Notes under the pieces: generated by a model
Seen by the model: only the letters and a program-made list of their open reading frames with translations
Told to the model about the DNA's origin: nothing
Databases searched by the model: none
Part shown: piece after piece, positions 571 through 36,222 of the stretch
How the letters are laid out: the number at the start of each line of letters is the position of its first letter
How positions within the stretch are numbered: position 1 is the stretch's first letter
Made by a program: the position numbers and the translations under genes
Source of the DNA: a virus
Taxonomy: Duplodnaviria > Caudoviricetes
DNA length: 51,192 nt
IMG/VR virus record: IMGVR_UViG_3300025132_000054
Span: 1 to 51,192 of that record
Direction: 5' to 3' (one strand)

Positions 571-876
571 CTACGGCACTGTGTCAATAGTTTGCGCGGC
601 AAGAGCGGGATTAAGAGACGCGCTTGCCAGCATCATAGTGTCGTGCCCCAGCAAACCTCCGAGGAGGATAAGTCCGAGCACAATCGTCTGGGGATTCTTC
701 ACAGCGGTGCCCCAGTCGAACTGATTGCGTTTCGCCATCTCAGTAATCTGGGCCTCGATCCTGTCTAATGTGCGAACGGAGTGCTTCTGCTCGTTCTGCA
801 CAATGGCCAACGTCTCACGGATTCCTCCGACCTGGTCTTCAAGAATCGTTACGCGCTGGTCCAAGTTCGACATCAT
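571..876 (-). CDS. small coiled-coil plus membrane protein (holin/lysis-associated candidate)
   Basis: N-terminal heptad coiled coil, then a hydrophobic segment (IVLGLILLGGLLG); ATGA overlap with the upstream gene. Confidence 0.45.
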   Translation of the reverse strand: MMSNLDQRVTILEDQVGGIRETLAIVQNEQKHSVRTLDRIEAQITEMAKRNQFDWGTAVKNPQTIVLGLILLGGLLGHDTMMLASASLNPALAAQTIDTVP

Positions 877-3800
877 TCTTCCTCAGCTCTTTTTTCTTGC
901 TCTAAAGTTTCCAGCCGGTCGCTTTTGCCTCTCAAGAGCCGCATTCGTTTGTCATGAAATCTTTTAACCGACTGAACAGTTGCTGAAATGTTTTTCGTTG
1001 AGTTAAACATGTGGATCTTCATCTCGCGAGTAAACATTTCCGCCGCTGCTAGGCGTATTCCGAGAGGACCGAGGTCTTCATATTTGTTGAACTCAAACTT
1101 TTTAATCTTACCGCCGCTCAACTCATCAATAAGAGGGTCTAAGTCTGGTATTCGCAGGGGAAACTGCGGCAAGTATACCTTCATCTGGACCCTGACTTCA
1201 TCTGGCACGGCCTCTCCGATGTCGCCCATGACTGTGGTCGCGAGCAGCCGAATGAAGTTTGGTTCGTCTCCGAGGTAAGTCATGGGGTCGAAGATCCCCG
1301 AGACTGCTAGCGGGTTTCGAGTAACATACTGTCCGTTGATAACCTCGATGTCTAGGTTGTCTTCAAGACCAAAATACTCAATGTTTTCGTAGGCGCGTTG
1401 GCTTATCTTCTTGTAGTCGGCACTGTACCCAGGGCCTATGTCTACAAGTTTGCGGACAAAGTCATTAAGAATAGCTTCCTGCGCGGGGTACAGTTGCTGC
1501 AAAAATGCCTCTGTACTGGCCTTCATTGACTTCAAGCCATCAAAGCCTAGGTCGCTGAAGAACAGAGACGCGACTCCTGCGATAGACATCTTCTGTATCT
1601 CTGCAAACGTATTCAATGTCTGAAGCACACCAAGGGGAGCGCCTGATGTGAGGACGTAACTGGTCGCCAAACTGCCTGTGTCCCGGAGATCTTCTTGAAC
1701 CTCTAAGGGCAACGCTCCTTTTTGAACAATCATCGAATCTAATAGGTAGTCGTATGGGCGAAAAATGTTTTCCCTGGTTTCGAGCTTTTTGTCCAGCACG
1801 CCCTCAATGTCTGAAAAGTCATCGCTTCCAACGCCTTGGTCTATATCACTGATGTCAACGTCAGAGCGCCTGTTCTGTATCTGGGTCATTCTGTACAAAG
1901 CACGCGCCCGCTTATAGCGTCTTCCAATCACCAGTTTGTTCATAAACCAGCGCCGCGTCTTGCTGCTGACGCTCATTACATCGGCAGCGGTGGTCAACGT
2001 CTGATTCTTTGAGTAAGTGTAGAACGTGGCATACTTGGCAATAGTCGCTGCTTCAAGCGGGCTGACGCTAAGAGTATAGTCAAAAATAGTTCGGTTCATA
2101 GCCTTAGTGGCTTCGCTTACTGACATGCCTTGGTTGACGATTAAGTCAGAGAACACCAACATCTTTGTTCGATGCGTGCCTACAGCATTGGCGTCTCTGA
2201 AGATTGCAAGCCATCTAGCATAAGGAGAAACAAACGCCTCGCCTGCTTGCTTTGTTTCTTTCACAATCGATCGTGTGCCAGCAGGATTCTCTCTGAACTC
2301 TCGATCAGCGGCAACCCGCAAAGAGTCCGACCCTTCTGTTCTTAGAATATCCTCGAAGACGCCTGCGCGAGTTGCGTCACGCTTAAAGTCTCGAGGGTTC
2401 AACTCAATCGGGTCTCCGTTGGCTTTGTAATAAGTTCGGGTTTCGTTTACGCCCTCAAGGACATCGTCCAAAAACTCGCTCATGTTTCCGCTTAGGATGC
2501 TCGGGCCTGGTACACCCAGACCGCCAAGCGCCTCGGTCCCTGCCGCGATCATACGCCGCGTGCCGTCTTGAAATGCAGGTCCAACTATAGGTACATAGCC
2601 AAGCAGTCCGATGCTTTTAATCTGCAGCGCCTTAGAGTATCCGAGCTCAATGGCAATCTTTTCAAAATCTCCATCAGCATTTCCGAAGAAAAATCTAAAC
2701 GCCTTTACTCCCGTTATTCCAAACAGCGTTTTGTTTTTCCACCAGTTGACCAGCCTACTGGGAACTCGGGTAGACTGCTCTACAAGGTGATTTCCAGCTT
2801 TGGCGCTACTTAGTGTGACATTCAAATCCTTCATTAGATTCTTTGTCTCGTAAGAGAAAGCGCCCCAGTCGATTTTAGGAATAATGTTTGGATTGCCGTT
2901 CTCATCGTATGAGTGCAGAATAAAACGAACGTAGTTGTCTCTCAAACCGTTCCATCTTTGGATAAAATCTGTATCCTTCACGACGCCCACATTCCGAGCG
3001 AGGTCCAAACCGTAAGCCATGTAGCCATCAACTAGGTCATAGCTTGCAAACTCCCCGCCCATGCGTGTCAGATTTTTAAGGGGCACTGTAGTGGTATCGC
3101 CCGCGTTGTCTATCAGCGTGACAATGCCGGTTTCAGATACTTTGCCCACTTCGTAAGTTTTCGGGGCCGCAATGTCGGATTCTAGTACAGAAGTAAACGG
3201 CTCCGGGCCTCTGCGTTTTGCGTCTAAGTCATCAAACTTTACGCGCTTGCCCTTACCTTTTGTGTCCGAAGGCTTGCGGGTTAAGATTTTTCGCAGGGGA
3301 TCGATGTCAGAGCGCAATGCGACTCGGTCACCTACCTCGATTGTTTCCCGTAGAGGTAGCGTAGTTTTGTACAGACTTGATTCGTCTGCACCACTAATCA
3401 TAAGTTCCAAAGCCCTAAGATTTCGGATGCCTAAGTTTCCAGAGGTCAAGTTGGAAACGTCTTTGACAAAGCCCCGCTCCATCGCCCCAGTGATCACGTT
3501 CTTAAATACAAGCCGGAAGCTACGTCCTGGCATTAGGAACGGGTCGGTATCTTTCCCCACGACTTTTGGAATCCTCGCTTCCTTGATCGAGTTCAGATTG
3601 ATTCTATCAATCTCCGACATCACACCCTTGCTGAGTTCAGACATGCGTTTTGACGGGTCGGGGATCAACTTTATACGCTCGGCGTTCGACAGAGTCTGCC
3701 CTTCAGGTGTTCTGTTTAACCATCTACCAAACGCTACGATTGCATCTTTGGCTTTCTTTTGGCCCCGCTGCCCGATGTTATCCCCAACGTGAGCAAGGAC

Positions 3801-6800
3801 AAAACCTTGGAGGCTGTTCGATTTTTCAAGGAAATGCTCAGTTAAGTCATCGCCTTTGGTCCTAACAAATGTTCGGCCTATTGAAGCCCAGTTATCAATC
3901 GCAAGGTTCAAAATATTGTCTGTGGCGCTGCCCCCAATCTGATTGCCCGAGACTTCGATGTTGGAACGAGTGCCCCCGAGCTCGATTCGATTCTGCGTCC
4001 CGATGTACTCAACAGCACGGGCTTTTGCAACAGAGGTTGCCTTGCCTGCGTCCTCGACTACTTGGCCCGAAAAATGCGCCAAGATGGCATCCGTATCGCT
4101 GAACCACTTTTTAATCTCTCTAGAGTTCGCGTTGGCCGCTTCTTGATACGCCTCAGCAAACTTGCTGCCCAGGACTCCCACCCGCGTGGTTGCAATGCCA
4201 GATCGATCGATCGCGTCCGCCGCTGCTATTAGTTGCGCTTGGCCAATGTACAGAGCGTCAGAGTAAAACTTTGGGCTGGCGAATCTAGTCCAGAGGACGC
4301 CGTGCTTGTTTCTCAGCCTAGTAATCGTGTTGCCTATATTCTCGTAGCCTCTAAGGGTTTCTTGGCCGATGGCTGCATACCCCAAGAACGATAACACCAA
4401 CCGCTTAGAGCCTTCCCCTCCGGTCTGCGCAATCACCTTCATCTTTGATTCGCCCGCAGCCAAGCGGTTTTGTACTTCAAAGTATTTATCGGTAATCGAT
4501 GCTACTTCTTCCGGCGCGTCCTCCATAACCTTGAGGGTTGTGGTGCCCTCGGGGGTATAGAAGCGGCTGTTGATAAAGGCTTGGCCCTCTTTTGATGCGG
4601 CGACTTCTGCCGCAGAGCGGAACATTCTGCTGACTCTCTTTACTTCCTCTAAAGAGTTCTGTTGATTGTTCCACAGGCCTGGTATTTTTTCGGTGCTCGG
4701 TGTATTGGCTAGCTTTTCGTGCGCCCGTTCGGTCAGCTCAAGCTGCTTTTCAATCTCGGCCACCTTGTCAGTCGCTTCGCCGTAGGCTTTTTCAGCTTTC
4801 GCTACCTGCTCTACCGCAAGTTCTACCAAATCATCGTAGCCCTTACCGCCATCTGCGGCGGCAGATACGATTCGCCCGAGGGCCGCGCTATCCGCCTTCC
4901 ACCCTGCCTCGCCTACGGTTTTACGCAGCTTCTCTACCGTCTCGGCCTGGTCTGCAAGCATCTGCTGGATTCTTGGTGAGGTCGCCCTAGCATCCGCCTC
5001 CTCGCTGGTCTTGACGAGGATGGTCTTGATTCTCTCACGCACGTCGGCTGACGCCTGCCGCTTCTGCGCAGGGCTGAGGTCTCCGGCCTCGATGTCGTCG
5101 AGAGACTTTTGCAGAGAAACGAGCTCGCGGTTGCGTGCCTCTAGGTCTTCAAATCGGTCAGCTTTTTCTTTCTTTGTTCGGGGAGTACCGTCAGCAGGTT
5201 TCTTTTTAACTTTTGGTTTTTCAGAAATCAGACGCGCTTCGGCGGATAGTCTATTTTGGGGGTAAGCTTGGGCCTCAAACTCTAAGCGCAACTGACGCGC
5301 CGCGCTTGTTTCATCTAACTGGCCCAGTATCTTGGACTGCTCTTGGTAAGGAAGCGCGTTGTACTCATCAGCGGTCAGGCCTAAATCTTTCAAAGTTTTT
5401 GGTTGCTCAAGATCTAAGCCAAGTTTTTTTGCTGTAGCAGCCTTTTCTAAAGGAGACAGTGCCTCAAACTCATCAACAGTCATGCCTAGATCTGCCAAAG
5501 TTGTAGGAGTCTGCGTCTTTGCTTTTGGTTTTGCTTTTGGTTTTTTGGGGGCAGCGGTCGTAGGTGTGGATAGCTGCTCCATCTGCTTGTTGACCGCAGC
5601 CTCGCGAACAGCCAAATCAATCTGGGTTTTGCGTACATCAAGTTCTGCAGATAGCTTGTCAACCTCAGCGGCTCTCTTCTCCAGCGAGGCTTTGACCACC
5701 TTAGTAGATTTTATCTTTTGTTCGGCAGCGGTCTGAGCGCCCTTGGCGGCGTCTATCTCCTCATCTAAAACTTTTGACGCATATTCAAATGCGTTCTCGG
5801 CTTGCCGCAACGCTTCCTGTTCCCCCGCAACTACCTTTGCGACCTCTTTCGCCCCTTTTGCGTTTGCGTTAAATGCGGCTTGCCTTGCGATTATCTGTTG
5901 AGCAATGCCAGCCGCACCGCTCACATCACTCTTGACTGCCGCCTCTACCGCCGCTTCAAGTTCGTCTGCAGTTTTTGCTGCTTGAATCGCATCGTCAACA
6001 AGTGCCGCGCCTCTGCGAATAGTCTTGTATGTTTTGGCCCCTTTGCCTATTAAGGACGCGGTCTTTCCAGCAGCAAACCCTGCGACACCGCCGGTAGCAG
6101 CAGCGGTCGCCTGTAGCGCATCAGGCTCGATAAGCATCCAGAACAGCCGAGGAGCGCCTGCAAGCGTGTTGGCTAAGACGGGGAAGTTTTCGTGAAGGTC
6201 TGGGTATGTAAGCCTGCCCGCCTTCATGAGCATGTTGCCTGCTGGGTCGTAACTAGACGCAATCGCCATAGTCATTCTGTCAGGGTCGTGGGAGATTTCA
6301 AAAATCTTTTGAAGAATAAACTCTCGCCTTCCCTCTTTTGGGTCCAAGATAAGTTTACCGTCCTTGTCTTTGCGGCCTCTGGCTTGATTGAGTGCAAGCC
6401 ATTCTTTATAAGCCTGCCATTCGGCAGCGGCCATAACGGTGCTTGGGGCGATTCGGATCATGTCATCTAGAGCACGGGTCGCGCCATACTCTGAAATCTC
6501 GACTCCGCCTAGTCCTTCCGCTAAGAACTCAAGACCGCCCTCCTCCGCGAGGTTTTTTTTGAACTCCTCTGGCCCCTCGATTGTACCTGCAATCGCTCTG
6601 GTTGGGAGTGTTAAAGCGCCGATTTCCCTAGCAACGGGCACTCGACCAATGCCGCCGTAAATGTCTCCCTCGAGGTAGTCCTCGATAGAGTCGCTTGTCT
6701 TGCTGTAAAGGTATGTCCCTTCGAGCTGCGCTCGTAGATGATTAATCTCTTCTTGGCCACTACGCCTTTGCTCAGTTCGGACGTATTTTTGGACCGCATC

Positions 6801-7775
6801 TCCGTAGGCCTCTGCGTCAGTATAGCCTTCTAATGGGACACCTAGTTCACGATTTCCGTCGTTAAAAGCCTGTATTGCGTCACGGCGAACCTGCAGTATA
6901 TCGCGGCCTCCGGTTATCTGCATAAGGGAGTTGGTCTCCGCGACCTCACGAACGTCCTTTAGACTGATGCTGTTCTTTGCGCGATAGCCACGCCCCTGTG
7001 TTGGGTCTTCAAAAAGAGGTACGATAACAAAAGGTAGTCCCGTCTTTTCAACATCTGGGCCTGGCGTGTATAAGCTCCGAATGTCTTGATCTGTGGGAGC
7101 GAGCTCTAATCGGTTTCGATTCTGTTCTGTATCTAGCAGCCCTGAAGTTATGCCCTGCCAATCATCGGGATTTAAGTTCGCCAGCAAGAGGGTCTTTTCC
7201 GGCCCTTCAGGCAATCGATCCGCCAACCGTTTATCAAAGTCTGTGCCAGTGACGGGCACAGAAACAGCCTTGCCCGTTTGTGTATTAAAACCAACGGCAA
7301 TAAAAAGAGGTTTTACCGTTTTAGCGTCTTCACTCACGGCGTTAAATGCGTCAATATCTAGGGTCGAGTCGGCCTTGTAGTTGTCGAGAACGTCTCGCTG
7401 AGTTTTATACACACCTTTGTTGACTCGGGTGTACGCTGTATTCCAAGCCTGTGTGAATGCTGACTCAGGAATATCAGGGTACTGGCTCATCGCGGTCTTT
7501 TTGGCCCGGTCGATGTAGTTTAAGGTCTTTATCTTCTGCTTACGCTCAAGGCGAGGCCCCATGTTTTCCGGGAGGTCTTCCTCGGTTAAGACGCCACCGC
7601 CGGTAGGCATGAACACCGCGTCTCCCAGATTCTTTTTATCTTCTTCTTCTAATGCCTCATACAGGGCATTCGCGGCAAGTATTTCAGCAGGAACTTCGGG
7701 CAGTGTTGCAATAAACTCATCCTCTAGAGGAAGGTCTTTTTCCGGCACCGTTTGTGGGTCAGGCGGAGTAGCCAT
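873..7775 (-). CDS. very large internal virion/ejection protein
   Basis: 2300 aa, Ala/Glu/Lys-rich helical; follows the tail genes; C-terminal 'AMNRTIFDYT..SPLE..FYTY' resembles large phage ejected proteins. Confidence 0.6.
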   Translation of the reverse strand: MATPPDPQTVPEKDLPLEDEFIATLPEVPAEILAANALYEALEEEDKKNLGDAVFMPTGGGVLTEEDLPENMGPRLERKQKIKTLNYIDRAKKTAMSQYPDIPESAFTQAWNTAYTRVNKGVYKTQRDVLDNYKADSTLDIDAFNAVSEDAKTVKPLFIAVGFNTQTGKAVSVPVTGTDFDKRLADRLPEGPEKTLLLANLNPDDWQGITSGLLDTEQNRNRLELAPTDQDIRSLYTPGPDVEKTGLPFVIVPLFEDPTQGRGYRAKNSISLKDVREVAETNSLMQITGGRDILQVRRDAIQAFNDGNRELGVPLEGYTDAEAYGDAVQKYVRTEQRRSGQEEINHLRAQLEGTYLYSKTSDSIEDYLEGDIYGGIGRVPVAREIGALTLPTRAIAGTIEGPEEFKKNLAEEGGLEFLAEGLGGVEISEYGATRALDDMIRIAPSTVMAAAEWQAYKEWLALNQARGRKDKDGKLILDPKEGRREFILQKIFEISHDPDRMTMAIASSYDPAGNMLMKAGRLTYPDLHENFPVLANTLAGAPRLFWMLIEPDALQATAAATGGVAGFAAGKTASLIGKGAKTYKTIRRGAALVDDAIQAAKTADELEAAVEAAVKSDVSGAAGIAQQIIARQAAFNANAKGAKEVAKVVAGEQEALRQAENAFEYASKVLDEEIDAAKGAQTAAEQKIKSTKVVKASLEKRAAEVDKLSAELDVRKTQIDLAVREAAVNKQMEQLSTPTTAAPKKPKAKPKAKTQTPTTLADLGMTVDEFEALSPLEKAATAKKLGLDLEQPKTLKDLGLTADEYNALPYQEQSKILGQLDETSAARQLRLEFEAQAYPQNRLSAEARLISEKPKVKKKPADGTPRTKKEKADRFEDLEARNRELVSLQKSLDDIEAGDLSPAQKRQASADVRERIKTILVKTSEEADARATSPRIQQMLADQAETVEKLRKTVGEAGWKADSAALGRIVSAAADGGKGYDDLVELAVEQVAKAEKAYGEATDKVAEIEKQLELTERAHEKLANTPSTEKIPGLWNNQQNSLEEVKRVSRMFRSAAEVAASKEGQAFINSRFYTPEGTTTLKVMEDAPEEVASITDKYFEVQNRLAAGESKMKVIAQTGGEGSKRLVLSFLGYAAIGQETLRGYENIGNTITRLRNKHGVLWTRFASPKFYSDALYIGQAQLIAAADAIDRSGIATTRVGVLGSKFAEAYQEAANANSREIKKWFSDTDAILAHFSGQVVEDAGKATSVAKARAVEYIGTQNRIELGGTRSNIEVSGNQIGGSATDNILNLAIDNWASIGRTFVRTKGDDLTEHFLEKSNSLQGFVLAHVGDNIGQRGQKKAKDAIVAFGRWLNRTPEGQTLSNAERIKLIPDPSKRMSELSKGVMSEIDRINLNSIKEARIPKVVGKDTDPFLMPGRSFRLVFKNVITGAMERGFVKDVSNLTSGNLGIRNLRALELMISGADESSLYKTTLPLRETIEVGDRVALRSDIDPLRKILTRKPSDTKGKGKRVKFDDLDAKRRGPEPFTSVLESDIAAPKTYEVGKVSETGIVTLIDNAGDTTTVPLKNLTRMGGEFASYDLVDGYMAYGLDLARNVGVVKDTDFIQRWNGLRDNYVRFILHSYDENGNPNIIPKIDWGAFSYETKNLMKDLNVTLSSAKAGNHLVEQSTRVPSRLVNWWKNKTLFGITGVKAFRFFFGNADGDFEKIAIELGYSKALQIKSIGLLGYVPIVGPAFQDGTRRMIAAGTEALGGLGVPGPSILSGNMSEFLDDVLEGVNETRTYYKANGDPIELNPRDFKRDATRAGVFEDILRTEGSDSLRVAADREFRENPAGTRSIVKETKQAGEAFVSPYARWLAIFRDANAVGTHRTKMLVFSDLIVNQGMSVSEATKAMNRTIFDYTLSVSPLEAATIAKYATFYTYSKNQTLTTAADVMSVSSKTRRWFMNKLVIGRRYKRARALYRMTQIQNRRSDVDISDIDQGVGSDDFSDIEGVLDKKLETRENIFRPYDYLLDSMIVQKGALPLEVQEDLRDTGSLATSYVLTSGAPLGVLQTLNTFAEIQKMSIAGVASLFFSDLGFDGLKSMKASTEAFLQQLYPAQEAILNDFVRKLVDIGPGYSADYKKISQRAYENIEYFGLEDNLDIEVINGQYVTRNPLAVSGIFDPMTYLGDEPNFIRLLATTVMGDIGEAVPDEVRVQMKVYLPQFPLRIPDLDPLIDELSGGKIKKFEFNKYEDLGPLGIRLAAAEMFTREMKIHMFNSTKNISATVQSVKRFHDKRMRLLRGKSDRLETLEQEKRAEEE

Positions 7776-9401: not shown

Positions 9402-11759
9402 TTACCCCGGAAGTTGTGCATTCCCGTATGTCCGGGGCGATGCGTCAAACGATAAACCAACAAACTCCCAGAATCCGGTGCCTGTTATGCGGAACTTAAC
9501 AACTTCAGCCGAAGGCAGGTATATTTGAGCTCTTGTCCAGTACGGGCGACGACGGCGAAACTTTGCCCCTGGCTCCCCTAAGCGCGTCTTGCCCCACACT
9601 GAAGGCTCGTCTACGTTGGTGAAGCGGTCAATCGTAACTTCCTCTACAACATCTTCGCGCCAATCCCGCATGACCTCAATCTTCACGGAATCTATCTCCG
9701 TCTCCCTGAACCAAAGGTAGATGGTGGGGATGGTCTCCTTGCGTTTAGACTGGAAGCCCTGCATCCATACTGTCTCGATCTTGGACTCGCGTGTGTCAGA
9801 TAGAGTTCTAAGGCCCCTGTGAGTTCTTGAGGCGGCATGGTCGAGCAAGAACACTCCGTCACCCCCTTCTTGGCCTGAGACGCTTCCTGCGGCCAATAAG
9901 TACGCCCTGTGGTCGTCGGTGACGCACACATCTCGAGGCTGAAAATCTGTGCGCGTTCTCCACAAATCCCCGGAATATGTAAGGCACAGATTGTTTTCGA
10001 CCGAACCGTCAGTCGAAACCCAGCATCGATACTCATTCGACATGCCGTCAAAAACAGAGCATGCTTGACTGAAGCGGGCGAGAGTAAATCTCTTCAACAG
10101 GCGGTTAAGAGGGGCAGACTCGAAAGAAATGGTGTTGCCGTCAAACGAATAGAACCCGCCGTAACTTAGCCAAATCACCCTACCATCGGGTAACGTCTGA
10201 AGCGAGTTCGGGGCCGCGCATCCTACTTCTCTGGAGATTGGCACTGCACTAAAGTCGCTGCCTTGGTTGAGTGCTGTAATCAAGAATGTGCTCGACGAGG
10301 TAAACGCCAGTAGGCCTCGGTCGCAGCGCCACAGGCCCGTGATCTCCCCACCCGACGCATCGGGATAGATGGAGTCGCCTTTTTGAAAAGTTCCCCACGC
10401 ACCAGGCTGTGAGAACCTAATCAGGCCCTCGTTGTCTCTGGTGTTAGCAATGAACAACCGGCCAAACGCAGCGCGACACAGCTTGAAGCGCGGCACCGGA
10501 ACAACGTCCATCAGCTTCGCGCCGAGGTACGAATCGGACATGTTGTCCGGGTAGATGGTGGTGATGTTGTCCTGCAGCGTGGCAAACGTCGTAAACGTGG
10601 CCGACGTGTTCTGAGGCAAGGCGTAGTACCCAGCATCACCAGAGTTAATCAGGTCTTTGGTTCTGTAGAGGTTGCGTCCGACGCAGTGGTCAGGACCGGT
10701 GGATATTCCAGTCCACGCAAGTTGAAACTTCAAGTTTTCAGGAGCGACATTTTCTTTGGTTTCTGCCGATATAAAATCAAACTTGTCGCGCACACGGGTT
10801 TCTGTACCTTGCCGGTCACAACCAACGGGCGCACTCGCCTCTGAAGGCGCGGACAGATTGCCAAAGACATCAATGTACTGCACCTTGCAACGCCACTCGC
10901 CCGCGTCAAGCAGGCCTGCGGCATACGGCGTATCGCTGCTCCCACCATCCATGAGGTAAGGGTTCACAGTTCCAATGCGGCCCTTCTTAAAGCCATACTG
11001 CATGCCGGAAGGGTTGTTTTTATTCCTAGCAATCCACAGGCCTGTGTGCGCGTAGCCTGTGTCATTTATGCCGTCAGTAAGGTCTTCGCCGCCACGGAAA
11101 AAGTCAGTGGTGCTTTCCGGTCCCGACGACATCGGGGTTGACGGGGTCTCGCTGAACCCGAGAGGTGCGATGATGTGGCCGTCGTAGAAGTAGGCTCGAC
11201 CATTTTGCGGAACGATAACAACCCCGTTACCTACCGTCTCAAACTGCGTAGGAAAGCTGGGCGACTCATCGTCAGGCAGTTCGCCTTTCAGCCCGTGTGC
11301 TGACGCGGGGTTGCTAATAAGCCGACGCCAGTCCCTTTTCCAACCGCGAAACTCCCACAACTCATTAGACGTGTGGAGCAGAAGTACATCACGCTCGCCG
11401 CCTTGAAGTACCGCATGGTGGATGCCGTGCTGCAGCTTACCGTACAGAGGTAGCGACGAATCACAAACATCAAACGGGGCGGTTGCTTTCGGCTCATCGT
11501 AAGCAAAGCTCTTGATAGATCGAGGCTGACCTCCGGGAGCAACAAGAGCAGTACCGTCCTGCGCAAGCAAAGGCGTCTTCTGAGGGACGTAAACCGCAGG
11601 CCCCCACGCAGACCGAAGAGTTCCTTCCTCAAGGCTGTACATGTTGACGATTTCGTGAGCGAGCTCATTCGGTAGAATCAGCCCGTCATCTTGGCCTCGG
11701 ATAAAGTACGCGCTCTCAGAGCCGGAAGGTCGTTCGCGGCGGTTCTTTAAGTAGGCCAT
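9402..11759 (-). CDS. tail tubular/nozzle protein (P22 gp10 / T7 gp12-like DNA stabilization protein)
   Basis: 785 aa; propeller-like motifs 'GRLFIA..IRFSQPG', 'GEITGL', 'VGCAAPNS', 'WLSYGGFYSFDG'; position after the adaptor. Confidence 0.65.
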   Translation of the reverse strand: MAYLKNRRERPSGSESAYFIRGQDDGLILPNELAHEIVNMYSLEEGTLRSAWGPAVYVPQKTPLLAQDGTALVAPGGQPRSIKSFAYDEPKATAPFDVCDSSLPLYGKLQHGIHHAVLQGGERDVLLLHTSNELWEFRGWKRDWRRLISNPASAHGLKGELPDDESPSFPTQFETVGNGVVIVPQNGRAYFYDGHIIAPLGFSETPSTPMSSGPESTTDFFRGGEDLTDGINDTGYAHTGLWIARNKNNPSGMQYGFKKGRIGTVNPYLMDGGSSDTPYAAGLLDAGEWRCKVQYIDVFGNLSAPSEASAPVGCDRQGTETRVRDKFDFISAETKENVAPENLKFQLAWTGISTGPDHCVGRNLYRTKDLINSGDAGYYALPQNTSATFTTFATLQDNITTIYPDNMSDSYLGAKLMDVVPVPRFKLCRAAFGRLFIANTRDNEGLIRFSQPGAWGTFQKGDSIYPDASGGEITGLWRCDRGLLAFTSSSTFLITALNQGSDFSAVPISREVGCAAPNSLQTLPDGRVIWLSYGGFYSFDGNTISFESAPLNRLLKRFTLARFSQACSVFDGMSNEYRCWVSTDGSVENNLCLTYSGDLWRTRTDFQPRDVCVTDDHRAYLLAAGSVSGQEGGDGVFLLDHAASRTHRGLRTLSDTRESKIETVWMQGFQSKRKETIPTIYLWFRETEIDSVKIEVMRDWREDVVEEVTIDRFTNVDEPSVWGKTRLGEPGAKFRRRRPYWTRAQIYLPSAEVVKFRITGTGFWEFVGLSFDASPRTYGNAQLPG

Positions 11760-11762
11760 GAT

Positions 11763-12080
11763 TTAACTCTTTTTTCTGGGTCGCCCCACGCTTGTCTTTG
11801 TCCGCCGCACAGGAGGCTTCGGCTCTGGCTTCGGCTCTGGCTTCGGCTCTGGTTTCTCAATAACCAAAGGCGCTGGCTTTGCAATCAGCTCAAGCTTTGC
11901 CAAGCGGTCTTTGTTGTGATTCGTAACCAGCTCAGGCTTGAAGCCGGTCCAGTAAATCAGACCGGACTGCTCGTTACCGTTGATAGTCAAAGCCACCATT
12001 AGGCCGTGCCTTTCAACGTCATTTGAATCCAACTGCTTGTATACCGCACCACAGATAAGCGGTGTATCTTCTTTACCCAT
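11763..12080 (-). CDS. hypothetical protein with PEPK repeats and a basic tail
   Basis: 105 aa overlapping the upstream stop. Confidence 0.65.
   Translation of the reverse strand: MGKEDTPLICGAVYKQLDSNDVERHGLMVALTINGNEQSGLIYWTGFKPELVTNHNKDRLAKLELIAKPAPLVIEKPEPKPEPKPEPKPPVRRTKTSVGRPRKKS
11815..11850. repeat. coding tandem repeat GGCTTCGGCTCT x3 (PEPK)
   Basis: three exact 12-bp units. Confidence 0.85.
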
Positions 12081-31833: not shown

Positions 31834-32064
31834 CTAGAACAGCGGTTCACGCACTGGTGTCGAATCAATGGTCTCACCCAACCGACCAGAATCCAACATC
31901 TCCTTCAGAGCTAACTCCGGGATGCGAACTTGGCGACCCACACGAAACGCTTTCAGTTCGCCGCGCTGAATCAGACGCTGAACCGTCCTGGCACTCACCT
32001 GTAGACGCTCGGAAACCTCCGCAGGCGTCAAAAATCTGCTCTCGAGAGCTGACTCTAACTTCAT
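31834..32064 (-). CDS. excisionase-like HTH DNA-binding protein
   Basis: 'FLTPAEVSERLQVSARTVQRLIQRGELKAFRVGRQVRI'; AGGAGG RBS supports a start at 32064. Confidence 0.85.
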   Translation of the reverse strand: MKLESALESRFLTPAEVSERLQVSARTVQRLIQRGELKAFRVGRQVRIPELALKEMLDSGRLGETIDSTPVREPLF

Positions 32065-32135
32065 CACTGTCCTCCTGTTTGTGACATACGGGTATCCTAC
32101 CTTACAGAAGGTGGCAAGGGCTGACATAAAAGACA

Positions 32136-32423
32136 GTCTACGCTCTGGCGACGTGTCTACACTTTGACGTAGACGCCCGTATCTGCGGGGGAACCTAGAC
32201 AATCTCTGGGTGACTACGGTGTCTACACTTTTCTCCTTATTGTGAGCCTTACACGTTTTTGAAAATGCCATGATATATTGAGGTGAGGTGTATGTGTCTG
32301 GAATAGGTAGCGTAGACAGCGTAGACAACTGTAGAAAACAAACCGTATTCACGGAACAACCCTAAATATCGTGTCTACACTTTGCAGCTCACGGGCGTAG
32401 ACAAGCGTAGCCAGGCGTAGACA
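32136..32423. repeat. iteron-like GTCTAC/GTAGAC repeats (putative replication origin)
   Basis: GTGTCTACACTTT at 32153, 32219 and 32371; CGTAGACA at 32311, 32320, 32396 and 32416; further variants; adjacent to the primase-helicase. Confidence 0.65.
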
Positions 32424-32548
32424 GGTCAGAAAATAGTAAAAAATGATGTCGTGTTGAGTCAGTAACCCAGTAATAGAAAAAAAATCCAAAAAAGGGGGGA
32501 TGCACCATAGCGCGGCAGGCTTCAGCGGAAGCAGGCGCGGGGCGTGTC

Positions 32549-32649
32549 GAAAAACTTTCAGCGGACCGCAAAATATTTTTCATGCCCGAAAAAAAACTTT
32601 CATCACGCAGGTAGAAAAACTTTCAGCGGGACGACGAAAAACTTTCAGC
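32549..32649 (+). repeat. phased AAAAACTTTCA(GC) repeats
   Basis: copies at 32549, ~32591, 32614 and 32636, plus a degenerate copy at 32570; ~21-22 bp spacing. Confidence 0.8.
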
Positions 32650-33068
32650 ACATCAGCGGGCGAGACGCGCCGGACCTGTGACCCCAAGATGTCGAGAGGG
32701 TAGCGACGGCACCGGCTGCAGCGATTCGGGCAACATAGGGGGGACGCCCTCACATGTAGAGAGGCAACGACGCCCCCTTATGCGGTGGTCTCGGTCTCGT
32801 TGCGTCGATTCGGGTCCGATTCATTGCCCATAGGTACGGTTCCGCACGATTGGAAATCCCCCCACATGTCACGGTCACAAGCTCCACAAAAATGCGTACG
32901 ACGTACCTGGTACGTCTAATATTTTTTTCAGCCGAAAACGAAGGTTTAACCACAGCTTTGGCTCCTGGAGCATCAACCGTTGCCCCTTTATATGGTGGCG
33001 CGTTTGGCGTTCAGTCCGTTATCTGTCTCGCGTGGGACACATCAACCAACCCACGGAGGACACATCAC

Positions 33069-33566
33069 ATGCTTGAATCAACCGTAACCGCCGCCGCTTT
33101 CATCGCCGCCGCTAACAAGATTTCCCACGACCTTGCGGCCCTGCACGGGTGCCCCGACTTCAAGGCCATCAAGCGATACATGCGTCAGTATGCGTCACGG
33201 GATTTCGCCACGGGTCACAGCGGCACGATGGCGTTCGAGGTGTTGAGCGCGTTTCACTCCATGTCATTGGAGGACAAAAAGACCGCATCGATTGAAGCCC
33301 TTACGGTGTACCGTGACGCAGCCAAGCAGGCGGCGGAAGACCTCGACGCTTACCAAGTGAAGGCGGCGGAGTTGTTGGTTCGTGCTCTGAATACCCCCGA
33401 GCACCGCAGCCCGAGTATGATTGACCGCTTGTGTCACGAAGTGCAGCATCACGAAGCACTGCGCCCCCGTTTCGCTGAGGTGGTTCTTCAGTTTGATGAA
33501 CTCCTATTCGCGATGAACAGTCCCGAGGAGGTGGCCAAGATGTACGCGGAACAGGCCGAAGGCTAG
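33069..33566 (+). CDS. early hypothetical protein
   Basis: start revised to MLESTV after the GGAGG RBS; 165 aa. Confidence 0.7.
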   Translation: MLESTVTAAAFIAAANKISHDLAALHGCPDFKAIKRYMRQYASRDFATGHSGTMAFEVLSAFHSMSLEDKKTASIEALTVYRDAAKQAAEDLDAYQVKAAELLVRALNTPEHRSPSMIDRLCHEVQHHEALRPRFAEVVLQFDELLFAMNSPEEVAKMYAEQAEG

Positions 33567-33578
33567 CGCGGCCCCTTC

Positions 33579-33637
33579 ATGGGGTCGGGTGCTATTGCGG
33601 CACCCCTGACGATGGCCATCGCAGGCCGAAACCCCGT
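33579..33637 (+). ncRNA. hammerhead ribozyme, type III (extra U after CUGACGA)
   Basis: AUGGGGU-C^ GGGUGC[UAUUGCG]GCACCC CUGACGA U GGCC[AUCGCA]GGCC GAAA CCCCGU; predicted cut after GUC at 33586. Confidence 0.85.
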
Positions 33638-33665
33638 TAGCACATCAACCGAGAGGACACACCAC

Positions 33666-34661
33666 ATGCACACATCAACGCACACCCTTCTAGACCTTGC
33701 CGCCGACATCAAGACCGACGCCCTTGAATCGATCGAGGCGTTGACGCGCCGCCCTATCTCTTGCCCCGCCATCGCTGGGAGCATTGACTTTCTTCGGGGA
33801 TGGCTGGAAGCTGACAGCGCCACCCGCGCCGCCGCTACGCTGGGCGAGGTTCAAGACCTAGTCAACGCGGCGTCATGGTTCGCGGATTCCGAAGCGTGCG
33901 CGATTGGGGAATACGTCAAGTGGAGAGGCGTTGACAACCGCCACCAGTTGCAGGGGATGATGGAAGAACTGGAAGCGATGAGAGGAGCCGTCAAGATGTG
34001 GGACCGGTTGGAGACGCACGCGGCTAGCGTGCTAGAGGAACGTGCAGACGAACCCCCGACCGCTCCCCTATCGACTCCGCCCACCGTGCCAGAGGTCGCC
34101 GCCGCTTTTTGGTCTGATGTTCAGTTCGTTAGCACTCACGACGCCCTGACACGGGTGGACACCTTGAACGAGGCCGAAGAGAACCCGTGCATCGATCATC
34201 TCGCCGACCTTATCGATGCGAATGAGTACATGTTGGACGCCTTGAGCCGTAGCTATCTAGACCGTGGAATCGTACTAGAGTGGGACGCCGAGAACCAAGA
34301 ACAAGCCGACTTGTGGAACGCCGCGTGGACCCTAGCCAAGAACACCGGCTACGCCAAGGACATCGGAGAACTCCACGACATGTGCAGCGCGCTCGGCCTG
34401 TGTCCTGACTATGAGGTAGCATACGACGCCAAGATGCGCGGTGACGCGCTGTTCTTCTTCGCTCTTCTGCACGGTGCGTCTACCTCTTACACCGTCCGCA
34501 ACATCGCCCAAACGTGGAGCGATGCCGAAGACCTTGGGTGGTCGAACCCTCTCGGAGATGTCACCGACGATACAGACCCTGCAGCGATTGACGCAGCCGA
34601 GCGCAGCGCGCTGGACTTCATCGCCGCCACGGGTCGCCGCCTTGTAATCGACGGAGAGTAA
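33666..34661 (+). CDS. early hypothetical protein (acidic)
   Basis: start revised to MHTSTH after the GAGG RBS, since the longer N-terminus would overlap the ribozyme; 331 aa. Confidence 0.7.
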   Translation: MHTSTHTLLDLAADIKTDALESIEALTRRPISCPAIAGSIDFLRGWLEADSATRAAATLGEVQDLVNAASWFADSEACAIGEYVKWRGVDNRHQLQGMMEELEAMRGAVKMWDRLETHAASVLEERADEPPTAPLSTPPTVPEVAAAFWSDVQFVSTHDALTRVDTLNEAEENPCIDHLADLIDANEYMLDALSRSYLDRGIVLEWDAENQEQADLWNAAWTLAKNTGYAKDIGELHDMCSALGLCPDYEVAYDAKMRGDALFFFALLHGASTSYTVRNIAQTWSDAEDLGWSNPLGDVTDDTDPAAIDAAERSALDFIAATGRRLVIDGE

Positions 34662-34745
34662 CCGCGAAGGGGGGCGCTTCCCCCCGCACCGCATCACGCG
34701 GCGTCACTCCCTGCAAGGATGGGGGTCAAGGTCCACGGACGGACA
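34662..34745 (+). ncRNA. unassigned structured intergenic RNA (multi-hairpin)
   Basis: GGGGGG/CCCCCC, CCGC/GCGG, CUCCC/GGGGG and GUCC/GGAC stems; occupies the same slot as the hammerheads. Confidence 0.35.
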
Positions 34746-34767
34746 TCAACCAGAAGGAGCAAGAGCA

Positions 34768-35151
34768 ATGACAACAGCAACAACAACAACAGCAACAGAG
34801 CGAGCCGAAGCACTTGAGACCCTGCGAGGGATGTTCAAGGGAAAGCGCACTCGCAGCGCACTTACGGTCTACTGCATTCTGCGGCACGTTAACCGCATGG
34901 GTACGTCTCGGGTTATCGATCTGCTTGTGATTCGTGACGGGGTTCCTTTCCGCATCTCTTGGAACGTCTGCAAAGCACTAGGCTACACTTACGACAGGAC
35001 GCACAGCGGGGTGCGTATCAGGGGCGGCGGAATGGACATGGGTTTGGCTATCGTTTACAACCTGTCACGGGCAATGTTCCAAGGTTCCCACCTGCGTCAA
35101 TCGTTCCACCGCAAAGATAAGGGCTACGTCCTCCGGTGTGAATGGCTCTAG
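34768..35151 (+). CDS. conserved-type phage early hypothetical protein
   Basis: AAGGAG RBS; 'TVYCILRHV...GGGMDMG..IVYNL' motif recalled from phage hypothetical proteins. Confidence 0.75.
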   Translation: MTTATTTTATERAEALETLRGMFKGKRTRSALTVYCILRHVNRMGTSRVIDLLVIRDGVPFRISWNVCKALGYTYDRTHSGVRIRGGGMDMGLAIVYNLSRAMFQGSHLRQSFHRKDKGYVLRCEWL

Positions 35152-35216
35152 GCTGGTACACTGAAGAGGCCACAGCAGGCCGAAACGGGGGCGCGTGCCC
35201 CCGTCTGTACCTAACC
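35151..35216 (+). ncRNA. hammerhead ribozyme, type I
   Basis: GGUACA CUGAAGA GGCC[ACAGCA]GGCC GAAA CGGGGGC[GCGU]GCCCCCG UC^ UGUACC; predicted cut after 35205. Confidence 0.95.
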
Positions 35217-35230
35217 AAAGGAGACGCCCC

Positions 35231-35728
35231 ATGTCCGAAGCACTTTACCCCCACGATACACGGTGGAAAGCATTCAACCCGAGGACCAACACGGTAATCG
35301 TTGGGCGTGTTCGCGACGTTACCGACTTCACCGTTCACCTGCACACCGGCAAAGATGTACAGGTACACGAGGACATGGACCGCGACGTGCTGTTATCGCT
35401 CAAGCGCTGGCACCTCGCACCGCACCTGTCCACCGCCCGCCCTGTCTATGCGCCGCCCGCCGCTATCGAATGGCTCACCCCCGAAGAGGTGGTCGCGTCC
35501 TGTTACACAGGTGCCACCGGTTGCCCCAAAGGCGAGGCGCTAGACGCTGACCTTGAAGACCTCCAAGCCCGTATCGATGCGGGCGACCTTTGCACGCTGA
35601 CCGGCTCCGGCTCGTGCCCTATGTCCGGTGGGTCGGTGGTCCTTATGCGTGATGTCTGGTTGCGCCTCTCGGACACATCGCGTGCGATGCTGCTGCGCTT
35701 CGACGCTGGATACCTTGACGGCGTCTAG
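35231..35728 (+). CDS. early hypothetical protein
   Basis: start revised to MSEALY after the AAGGAG RBS; 165 aa. Confidence 0.7.
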   Translation: MSEALYPHDTRWKAFNPRTNTVIVGRVRDVTDFTVHLHTGKDVQVHEDMDRDVLLSLKRWHLAPHLSTARPVYAPPAAIEWLTPEEVVASCYTGATGCPKGEALDADLEDLQARIDAGDLCTLTGSGSCPMSGGSVVLMRDVWLRLSDTSRAMLLRFDAGYLDGV

Positions 35729-35790
35729 CCTGATGCACTGACGAGACCGGAAGGTCGAAACGGGGGACGCTCCCCCGTCTGCATCTAAGC
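35728..35790 (+). ncRNA. hammerhead ribozyme, type I
   Basis: GAUGCA CUGACGA GACC[GGAA]GGUC GAAA CGGGGGA[CGC]UCCCCCG UC^ UGCAUC; predicted cut after 35779. Confidence 0.95.
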
Positions 35791-35802
35791 ACTGGAGGAC
35801 AC

Positions 35803-36042
35803 ATGAAGGGAACCACGTTTGAGGTGGTCACGTTTACGCTTCCCATGTATTGGGCGTGTTATCTTATCAACGGTGACGCGACAGGACTGGAGGACGGAGA
35901 ACAAGAACAGATAGACGCATGGCTCGCGTCGGAGGGCAATCCGTACTTCGTTGACGTAGGCGAGCACTACTTCTCTTGGCGCAATGACGCGACCCGACTG
36001 GGCGGCAACGTGGCGGAGTACACCGCGCACCTATACACCTAG
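35803..36042 (+). CDS. small acidic phage protein
   Basis: GGAGG RBS; 'LPMYWACYLINGDATGLEDGEQEQID' motif. Confidence 0.75.
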   Translation: MKGTTFEVVTFTLPMYWACYLINGDATGLEDGEQEQIDAWLASEGNPYFVDVGEHYFSWRNDATRLGGNVAEYTAHLYT

Positions 36043-36068
36043 ACGCCGCGCACACAGCAGCGTCACCG

Positions 36069-36097
36069 CGTCGAGGCTTCGGTCTCGGCGTTTTTTT
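36069..36097 (+). terminator. intrinsic terminator
   Basis: CGTCGAGGC-TTCG-GTCTCGGCG hairpin followed by T7. Confidence 0.9.
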
Positions 36098-36222
36098 GTG
36101 CCTCCTATGGAGCGCCTGACGTTCACACCCTGCACCTCTAGCCCCGCCCCGCCCTCGCCCTCGCTGTGGAATCGTGCCCGCACTGAGCTCGAGCTGCCGT
36201 CAAAGCAAAACCGGGCGAGCTC

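Follow-up and report, generated by a model that had tools for sequence, protein, structure and literature searches.

A type III hammerhead ribozyme that shares a strand with an upstream hairpin in a three-ribozyme operon of an uncultured marine phage

In the genome of an uncultured marine phage, a type III hammerhead ribozyme lies just downstream of a small gene, and the strand that carries its cleavage site can instead close a stable hairpin with the bases that follow the gene's stop codon. The question that this locus raises is whether the overlap serves the cleavage products, switches the ribozyme or has no role at all. The locus belongs to IMG/VR virus record IMGVR_UViG_3300025132_000054, which has 51,192 bases, an estimated completeness of 96% and a marine metagenome origin; we analyzed this whole stretch and refer to it as the window. 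We posit that the ribozyme, termed HH1, is an mRNA-processing element and that the hairpin overlapping its stem III would cap the 3' end of the upstream product, a reading to which we assign, from predicted folds and comparison with relatives, a probability of about one in two.

Architecture of HH1 and its subfamily

HH1 spans 33579..33637 (features described here lie on the plus strand unless stated otherwise) and was identified by a descriptor scan and a covariance model, which place the cut between 33586 and 33587. Stem III is an open helix of seven pairs, AUGGGGU (33579-85) with ACCCCGU (33631-37), and stems I and II are loop-closed, so that the type III topology is satisfied. In the stem I hairpin (33587..33605), 33587-93 pairs with 33599-605, GGGUGC(U) with (G)GCACCC, over six to seven pairs, and the stem II hairpin (33614-27) consists of GGCC (33614-17), the loop AUCGCA and a second GGCC (33624-27), with four pairs. 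The stretch from C3 to A9 reads CUGACGA (33606-12) with all core positions intact; G12, A13 and A14 are provided by the GAA at 33628-30, on the 3' side of stem II; and the cleavage triplet is GUC (33584-86), in which C33586 is C17 and U33585 pairs with A33631 as A15.1-U16.1. HH1 fails the usual rule that A9 directly precedes the G10.1-C11.1 pair, as an extra U (33613) intervenes between A9 and G10.1. Assignment of U33613 to position 10.1, forming a U10.1-G11.1 pair, was rejected because it would remove G12. We likewise rejected a type II permutation in which the upstream hairpin would serve as stem III, given that no GAAA precedes that hairpin and that C17 would be paired. A first-pass annotation of this DNA, made by a model from the sequence, had described a type III hammerhead in which A9 is followed by an extra U, and the sequence, the descriptor scan and the covariance model all bear this description out.

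We scanned the whole window for all three hammerhead topologies. The scan returned three matches, all on the plus strand: HH1 and two further hammerheads, HH2 and HH3, both type I. The same descriptors applied to 300 dinucleotide shuffles of the window gave 16 loose matches, none of them with stems of at least 6/4/5 pairs. Covariance model R1, which was built from 75 type III members from IMG/VR with the window left out, scores HH1 (33581-33635) at 63.5 bits (E 7e-17). In the R1 alignment of these 75 relatives, 97.4% of the cells are paired and 12 of the 15 pairs have changed on both sides, figures that are partly circular because the members were chosen for pairing.

The extra U is not confined to HH1. 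A search pattern composed of the core, the U, GGCC, 4-8 nucleotides (nt), GGCC and GAAAC, in which stems I and III and the cleavage triplet were not required, matched 106 IMG/VR stretches. These hold 107 distinct matches, 95 of which are complete hammerheads with the extra U (76 type III, 18 type I and 1 ambiguous), and the pattern also occurs in 48 stretches from bacterial and archaeal genomes of many phyla. The family sample used throughout this work was grown from a single stem II sequence and includes paralogous copies, and its open reading frames (ORFs) were called by length only. On this sequence evidence, the extra U after A9 defines a widespread phage subfamily and is not a defect. An extra core nucleotide between A9 and G10.1 reportedly also occurs in the (+) hammerhead of Chrysanthemum chlorotic mottle viroid, an active type III ribozyme; the viroid nucleotide is said to be an A where that of the phage subfamily is a U, and the viroid is a replicating RNA whereas HH1 lies in phage mRNA.

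In silico, loops 1 and 2 of HH1 may form a pseudoknot of four pairs, UGCG (33596-99) with CGCA (33620-23). Complementarity between these loops runs through the family, with a mean longest run of 3.21 as compared with 2.60 (standard deviation [sd] 0.079) for permuted partners, and 0 of 200 permutations reached so high a value. Judged from its sequence, HH1 is a genuine hammerhead of the self-cleaving type III class and looks active.

A further pairing involves the core itself. CUGACG (33606-11) can pair with a CGUYAG-type sequence (33635-40) just past stem III, as is also the case at loci L053, L085, L112, L114, L118 and L022 of the family sample, and this pairing would lengthen the stem II hairpin of the downstream product after cleavage. 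It is found in 9 of 98 relatives, most of which share one fixed offset, as compared with 5.4% at random places, and we do not count it as a family trait.

The competing hairpin and the end of the upstream product

The competing hairpin (33570..33586) pairs GGCCCC (33570-75) with GGGGUC (33581-86) across the loop UUCAU (33576-80), forming six pairs, one of them G-U. Three nucleotides (CGC) separate it from the TAG stop codon of gene A (33564-66). As the first-pass annotation had pointed out, the hairpin and stem III are mutually exclusive, since the 3' arm of the hairpin takes up both the 5' strand of stem III (GGGGU) and the cleavage nucleotide (C33586). The hairpin alone is predicted at -11.8 kcal/mol and has a pair probability of 0.99 in naked RNA. 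It is present in the minimum-free-energy fold, from which stem III is absent, and the predicted probability (P) of stem III in naked RNA is 0.000-0.006. The same fold contains a second competitor of stem III, a predicted outer helix of seven pairs between GCUAGCG (33562-68), an arm that includes the stop codon, and CGUUAGC (33635-41), an arm that overlaps the end of the 3' strand of stem III. Equivalents of this helix, joining the stop region to the 3' flank, can be written by eye for L053a and L053b, the two hammerhead modules of locus L053. The competing hairpin was also considered as an intrinsic terminator and rejected in that role, given that it is followed by GGGUGC, has no U run and is absent from our terminator scan.

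The case for a cap begins with what the two topologies would leave behind. Hammerhead cleavage would yield 2',3'-cyclic phosphate and 5'-OH ends. In a type I arrangement the entire ribozyme would remain on the upstream product as a terminal structure, whereas in a type III arrangement it would remain as the 5' leader of the downstream product, and the upstream product would need a separate hairpin. The spacing of the family members is consistent with this distinction. At IMG/VR loci L003-L118, the median distance to the upstream stop codon is 1 nt for type I members, 32 of 35 of which fall between -10 and +5, and 26.5 nt for type III members, where a stable hairpin usually fills the gap. At the bacterial genome loci (L273-L320) the median stop distances are -9 for type I and 36 for type III.

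The 3' ends of the upstream products are also predicted to be unusually structured. Across 84 type III members, the last 35 nt of the 5' product have a mean folding energy of -10.5 kcal/mol as compared with -7.0 kcal/mol at random places, and 34 of the 84 reach -12 kcal/mol or lower (196 of 1680 random places). When the comparison is made with the 35 nt that follow 1252 other long-ORF stops in the same loci, the means are -10.9 and -7.1 kcal/mol, and the -12 kcal/mol threshold is reached by 42% of the type III product ends and by 14% of the sequences after other stops (p 1.5e-10). Bacterial genomes point in the same direction as the phage loci, with stable ends in 9 of 22 products as compared with 58 of 440 controls (p 0.087). 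These regularities of spacing and predicted structure suggest that the ribozymes of this family may be built to leave a structured end on both cleavage products.

The window fits this trend: the last 35 nt of the HH1 5' product are predicted at -14.5 kcal/mol, and in the fold of that product the competing hairpin ends exactly at the predicted new 3' end. The first-pass annotation had anticipated this coincidence, and the enrichment of stable structure at the same place across the family now extends it. Only 12 nt separate the stop codon from HH1, and the cap hairpin would therefore recruit the 5' strand of stem III to serve as its 3' arm. Upon cleavage, which we infer to take place in vivo, HH1 would stay attached to the gene B mRNA as a 5' leader, and the competing hairpin would become the 3'-terminal hairpin of the gene A product. 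Before the cut the cap hairpin would, as a side effect, compete with the folding of HH1; after the cut it would snap shut, releasing both products and opposing their re-ligation. A ribosome terminating on gene A would transiently remove the competitor, and based on the fold predictions we regard this effect as likely a physical by-product, not a demonstrated or conserved gate.

Several results weigh against the reading of HH1 as a processing element with a cap. The cap idea is based on nearest-neighbor fold predictions and imperfect controls. In these predictions the HH1 fold lies 3.0-6.8 kcal/mol above the optimum, depending on the flanks, and the refolding barrier is estimated at 13.8 kcal/mol from the alternative fold to the hammerhead and 10.6 kcal/mol back; read literally, the energy model argues for an HH1 that would be slow unless helped, which would favor a helper such as the ribosome. 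Shuffling the 30 bases upstream yields a helix of six or more pairs with its end at C17 in 242 of 2000 trials, and random 30-mers taken from the window yield one in 450 of 5000; taken alone, the competing hairpin is not beyond chance, at about 10%, and may lack function. Our search for an orthologous locus found none, genes A and B giving self hits only. Finally, Rfam has no match to HH1 at the gathering score, and RF00008 has none on 33400-33800 even at E up to 10.

The absence of an Rfam match, together with the near-zero P of stem III in naked RNA, would also fit an inactive relic, in which the stable alternative fold wins and no cleavage occurs in vivo. We consider this very improbable. 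Of 18 type III members with the extra U at 13 IMG/VR loci (L003 to L081), Rfam at its gathering score finds none, and RF00008 applied to the whole record returns a permuted alignment over HH3 only; the miss is a blind spot of the Rfam type III model and not a weakness of HH1. A relic would not be expected to retain an intact core, stems of 7, 4 and 7 pairs and the pseudoknot typical of the family, nor to receive its score from the independent model R1, and the operon holds two more intact hammerheads. The poor predicted fold of HH1 is likewise shared, with stem III P below 0.1 in 42 of 84 non-identical type III members (window included). Because half of the family is predicted to be equally weak, the energy model underrates ribozymes of this family as a whole.

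A weightier alternative, which we hold to be possible, is that the hammerhead is functional and the upstream hairpin is chance complementarity, neither cap nor gate. The chance frequency given above speaks for it, and so does the comparison with relatives. A perfect helix ending at H17 has at least six pairs in only 3 of 85 relatives and at least five pairs in 12 of 85, and the energy deficit of HH1 (3.0 kcal/mol) is ordinary, falling inside the interquartile range of the family (0.6-3.6 kcal/mol). Upstream sequestration of the 5' strand of stem III above 0.7 is seen in 10 of 84 real sequences, 101 of 840 shuffled ones and 35 of 412 with swapped upstream sequence, which is no enrichment, and in isolated 5' products the pairing of the stem III strand (0.504) shows no excess over products with swapped tails (0.481, sd 0.026). 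Because sequestration is no commoner than in the shuffled and swapped controls, competition with stem III is not, by these sequence and fold comparisons, a selected trait of the family. Two observations count against chance complementarity: the 3' ends of the 5' products are enriched in stable structure across the family, a trend that the window fits, and L053a, L053b, L197-3 and L197-4 (the last two at a further locus, L197) all have a hairpin located after the stop codon and before the ribozyme.

The same hairpin had led the first-pass annotation to propose translation-gated cleavage. As we would formulate it, HH1 is kept off by the decoy GGCCCC arm and by the helix that joins the stop codon to the 3' flank, a ribosome terminating at the gene A stop codon covers both, stem III forms, and the RNA is cut, so that only transcripts with a translated gene A would be processed. 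HH1 would then be a translation-termination sensor: the gene A ribosome would cover the decoy arm and the outer helix, the cut would follow, and the decoy would cap the 3' end and expel the downstream mRNA. If this were true, the operon would be processed only once a first round of translation had licensed it. We consider such a sensor unlikely, although several of its physical premises hold up in prediction. By the toeprint rule, a ribosome with TAG 33564-66 in its A site reaches about 33576, and the decoy arm lies inside the covered stretch, within about 12 nt of the stop. We imitated this ribosome with a mask that forbids pairing for all bases up to a chosen distance past the stop (stop+n). 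When the mask ends anywhere from stop+9 to +13, the predicted P of stem III climbs from the 0.006 of naked RNA to 0.73-0.84, and at +15 it is 0.64; geometry and masking thus agree with the proposal that a ribosome could mask GGCCCC and let HH1 fold. The refolding barriers given above, higher toward the hammerhead than back, are also in keeping with a need for help.

The closest relatives of HH1 add a hint in the same direction. Loci L053 and L197 have a 3' flank and a leader like those of the window, with two type III modules at L053 and four in a row at L197 (reverse strand, 10262-11922). Each L197 module is built from a stop codon, a hairpin, the ribozyme, a conserved leader with GAGAGGA and an ATG, and the modules of both loci look like repeated cassettes between unrelated small genes. 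Among the 44 type III members with a naked P below 0.2, a mask to stop+12 lifts six above 0.5; the window and the two L053 modules account for three of these, and the other three come from 41 further members. With the mask at stop+12 the four L197 modules rise to 0.69-0.90, and L053a and L197-3 sequester the same stem III strand with different upstream arms.

This hint is weakened by the fact that homologous modules share ancestry and that extending the mask by 3 nt abolishes the rescue: at stop+15 the P of stem III is 0.05 for L053a, 0.015 for L053b, 0.07 for L197-3 and 0.02 for L197-4. Any neighboring C-rich arm can readily pair with a stem III strand that is rich in G, and the median type III member, at the spacing reported above, lies out of reach of a terminating ribosome. 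A ribosome terminating before HH2 or HH3 would cover stem I and inhibit folding, and there would therefore be no common logic across the three ribozymes. Across the 84-96 type III hammerheads compared with shuffled or swapped upstream sequence, family-level support for gating as a selected device is absent. What survives of the proposal is the mask-sensitive behavior of the closest homologous modules; set against this are an energy deficit ordinary for the family and a rescue that depends on where the mask ends.

In leader-peptide attenuation and erm-type control, which of two exclusive helices forms depends on where a ribosome stands on an upstream ORF. HH1 resembles these systems in having two exclusive helices and one arm in the footprint of the upstream ribosome. 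The output in attenuation and erm systems is termination or exposure of a ribosome-binding site with programmed stalling, whereas the output of HH1 would be self-cleavage, with a ribosome that is merely terminating and with selection unsupported. A literature search, in sources available in part, turned up no translation-gated hammerhead, which is not proof of absence; a structure paper on a pseudoknot hammerhead was set aside as a precedent because it concerns a different variant. Based on the predicted competition, removal of the upstream hexamer would probably speed cleavage in vitro.

Further searches for close relatives of the window added little. A pattern of GGGGTC followed by the core matched 75 stretches and gave no new complete hammerhead, a pattern based on the 3' flank matched 65 contexts and gave one new hammerhead locus (L197), and a lineage pattern gave none in genomes. 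A 345-nt low-depth contig of X1 (DNA) holds a related hammerhead with 8 differences, the upstream sequence of which again closes with a C-rich run and TTC; no IMG/VR match was obtained for an 18-letter motif taken from this contig.

Three ribozymes in one operon

The cap proposed for HH1 concerns one of three predicted cleavage sites in a unit ordered as gene A, HH1, genes B and C, HH2, gene D, HH3, gene E and a terminator. HH2 (35155..35211, cut after C35205) and HH3 (35732..35785, cut after C35779), neither of which appears in the first-pass annotation, were found by the descriptor scan as type I hammerheads with canonical cores, each 3 nt past a TAG stop codon (35149-51 and 35726-28, respectively). 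HH3 matches RF00163 at 21.9 bits, under the gathering score of 34 bits, and HH2 is missed by Rfam. They sit 1.6 and 2.1 kilobases (kb) downstream of HH1 in an operon of about 3 kb, and the three ribozymes, all on the plus strand and all intergenic, fall within 2.2 kb and are each followed by a Shine-Dalgarno sequence and an ATG. The upstream stop is TAG in all three cases, which is weak evidence since TAG ends 15 of 41 genes. An intrinsic-terminator-like hairpin with a T run (36068..36101), found by the terminator scan after gene E, probably ends the operon that holds the three ribozymes. The most likely job of the three ribozymes is to cut a polycistronic early transcript into mRNAs of one or two genes.

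The genes flanked by the three hammerheads are small and are orphans or of unassigned function. Gene A (33069..33566), taken from the ORF list with its translation, encodes 165 amino acids (aa) upstream of HH1, and gene B (33666..34661) encodes 331 aa downstream of it; both are orphans. Gene C (34768-35151) lies between gene B and HH2, gene D (35231-35728) between HH2 and HH3, and gene E (35803-36042) between HH3 and the terminator. Neither gene A nor gene B has a Pfam or PHROG match. A protein search with gene A returned only an identical 165-aa gene call and no further relative, and the search with gene B returned only its self match, with no relatives in IMG/VR.

The leader of gene B (33643..33668) consists of CATCAACC (33643-50), a Shine-Dalgarno sequence GAGAGGA (33651-57) and the start codon ATG (33666-68). 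There are five copies of CATCAACC on the plus strand of the window (32971, 33040, 33643, 34744 and 45945) as compared with 1.36 expected, and none of 100 shuffles reaches five. Three of the copies sit 16-22 nt upstream of the start codons of genes A, B and C, and CATCAACC is also found upstream of the genes that follow the L053 and L197 hammerheads; it may be a shared translation leader. Within the same unit, a strong hairpin (34669-34685; six G, CGCTT, six C) lies 7 nt downstream of the gene B stop codon, with no T run and no ribozyme, and is a candidate for another 3'-end stabilizer. The start of gene C (34768-34805) is a simple repeat of ACA and GCA codons, which encodes a run of Thr and Ala.

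In the wider window, the minus strand up to about 32.3 kb carries structural and replication genes, including a single ORF of 2300 aa (873-7775) in the structural block, and is followed by a repeat-rich control region and then by the rightward block of small genes. The control region (32310-32651), located between the divergent gene blocks, contains direct repeats, about five GCGTAGACA-like units and four of GAAAAACTTTCAGC, which may be operator or origin repeats. A blastn search of isolated phages with 32000-36000 gave no match, and tblastn of the window proteins against all fetched loci gave distant structural and replication matches only.

Clustered phage hammerheads and their annotation

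The arrangement of HH1, HH2 and HH3 has a precedent. Perreault et al. 2011 (PLoS Comput Biol, PMC3088659), in its main text, describes hammerheads of mixed types clustered in intergenic regions of prophages, where they flank single small genes of varying identity, with a triple arrangement in Agrobacterium tumefaciens as an example, and proposes that they process long phage transcripts into gene-length mRNAs. The three hammerheads of the window are likewise of mixed types, intergenic in one phage operon and flanking small genes; unlike the clusters described in that text, they belong to an uncultured marine phage, their neighbors are orphan genes, and one of them has an upstream hairpin that overlaps stem III. 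The main text of Perreault et al. 2011 (PMC3088659) discusses insertions after A6 and inside GAAA and does not discuss an extra U after A9, although the supplementary alignments may list U-insert members. A 2017 review reports the same arrangement, with prophage hammerheads flanking small non-conserved ORFs, and a 2019 review treats the purpose of genomic hammerheads as undefined, with polycistronic processing suggested and more work needed. RF00008 and RF00163 share with the hammerheads of the window the catalytic core, the three-helix junction and the permuted topologies. HH1, HH2 and HH3 belong with the known clustered phage hammerheads, and the U-insert subfamily is one that Rfam does not capture.

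The subfamily that escapes the Rfam type III model numbers at least 95 members in IMG/VR, and annotation pipelines therefore under-count phage ribozymes. The operon described here offers a compact test bed, with three ribozymes of two topologies in 3 kb, each of them adjoining a stop codon and a ribosome-binding site. At HH1, where the hairpin overlaps stem III, a cap, a gate and a chance complementarity predict different experimental outcomes.

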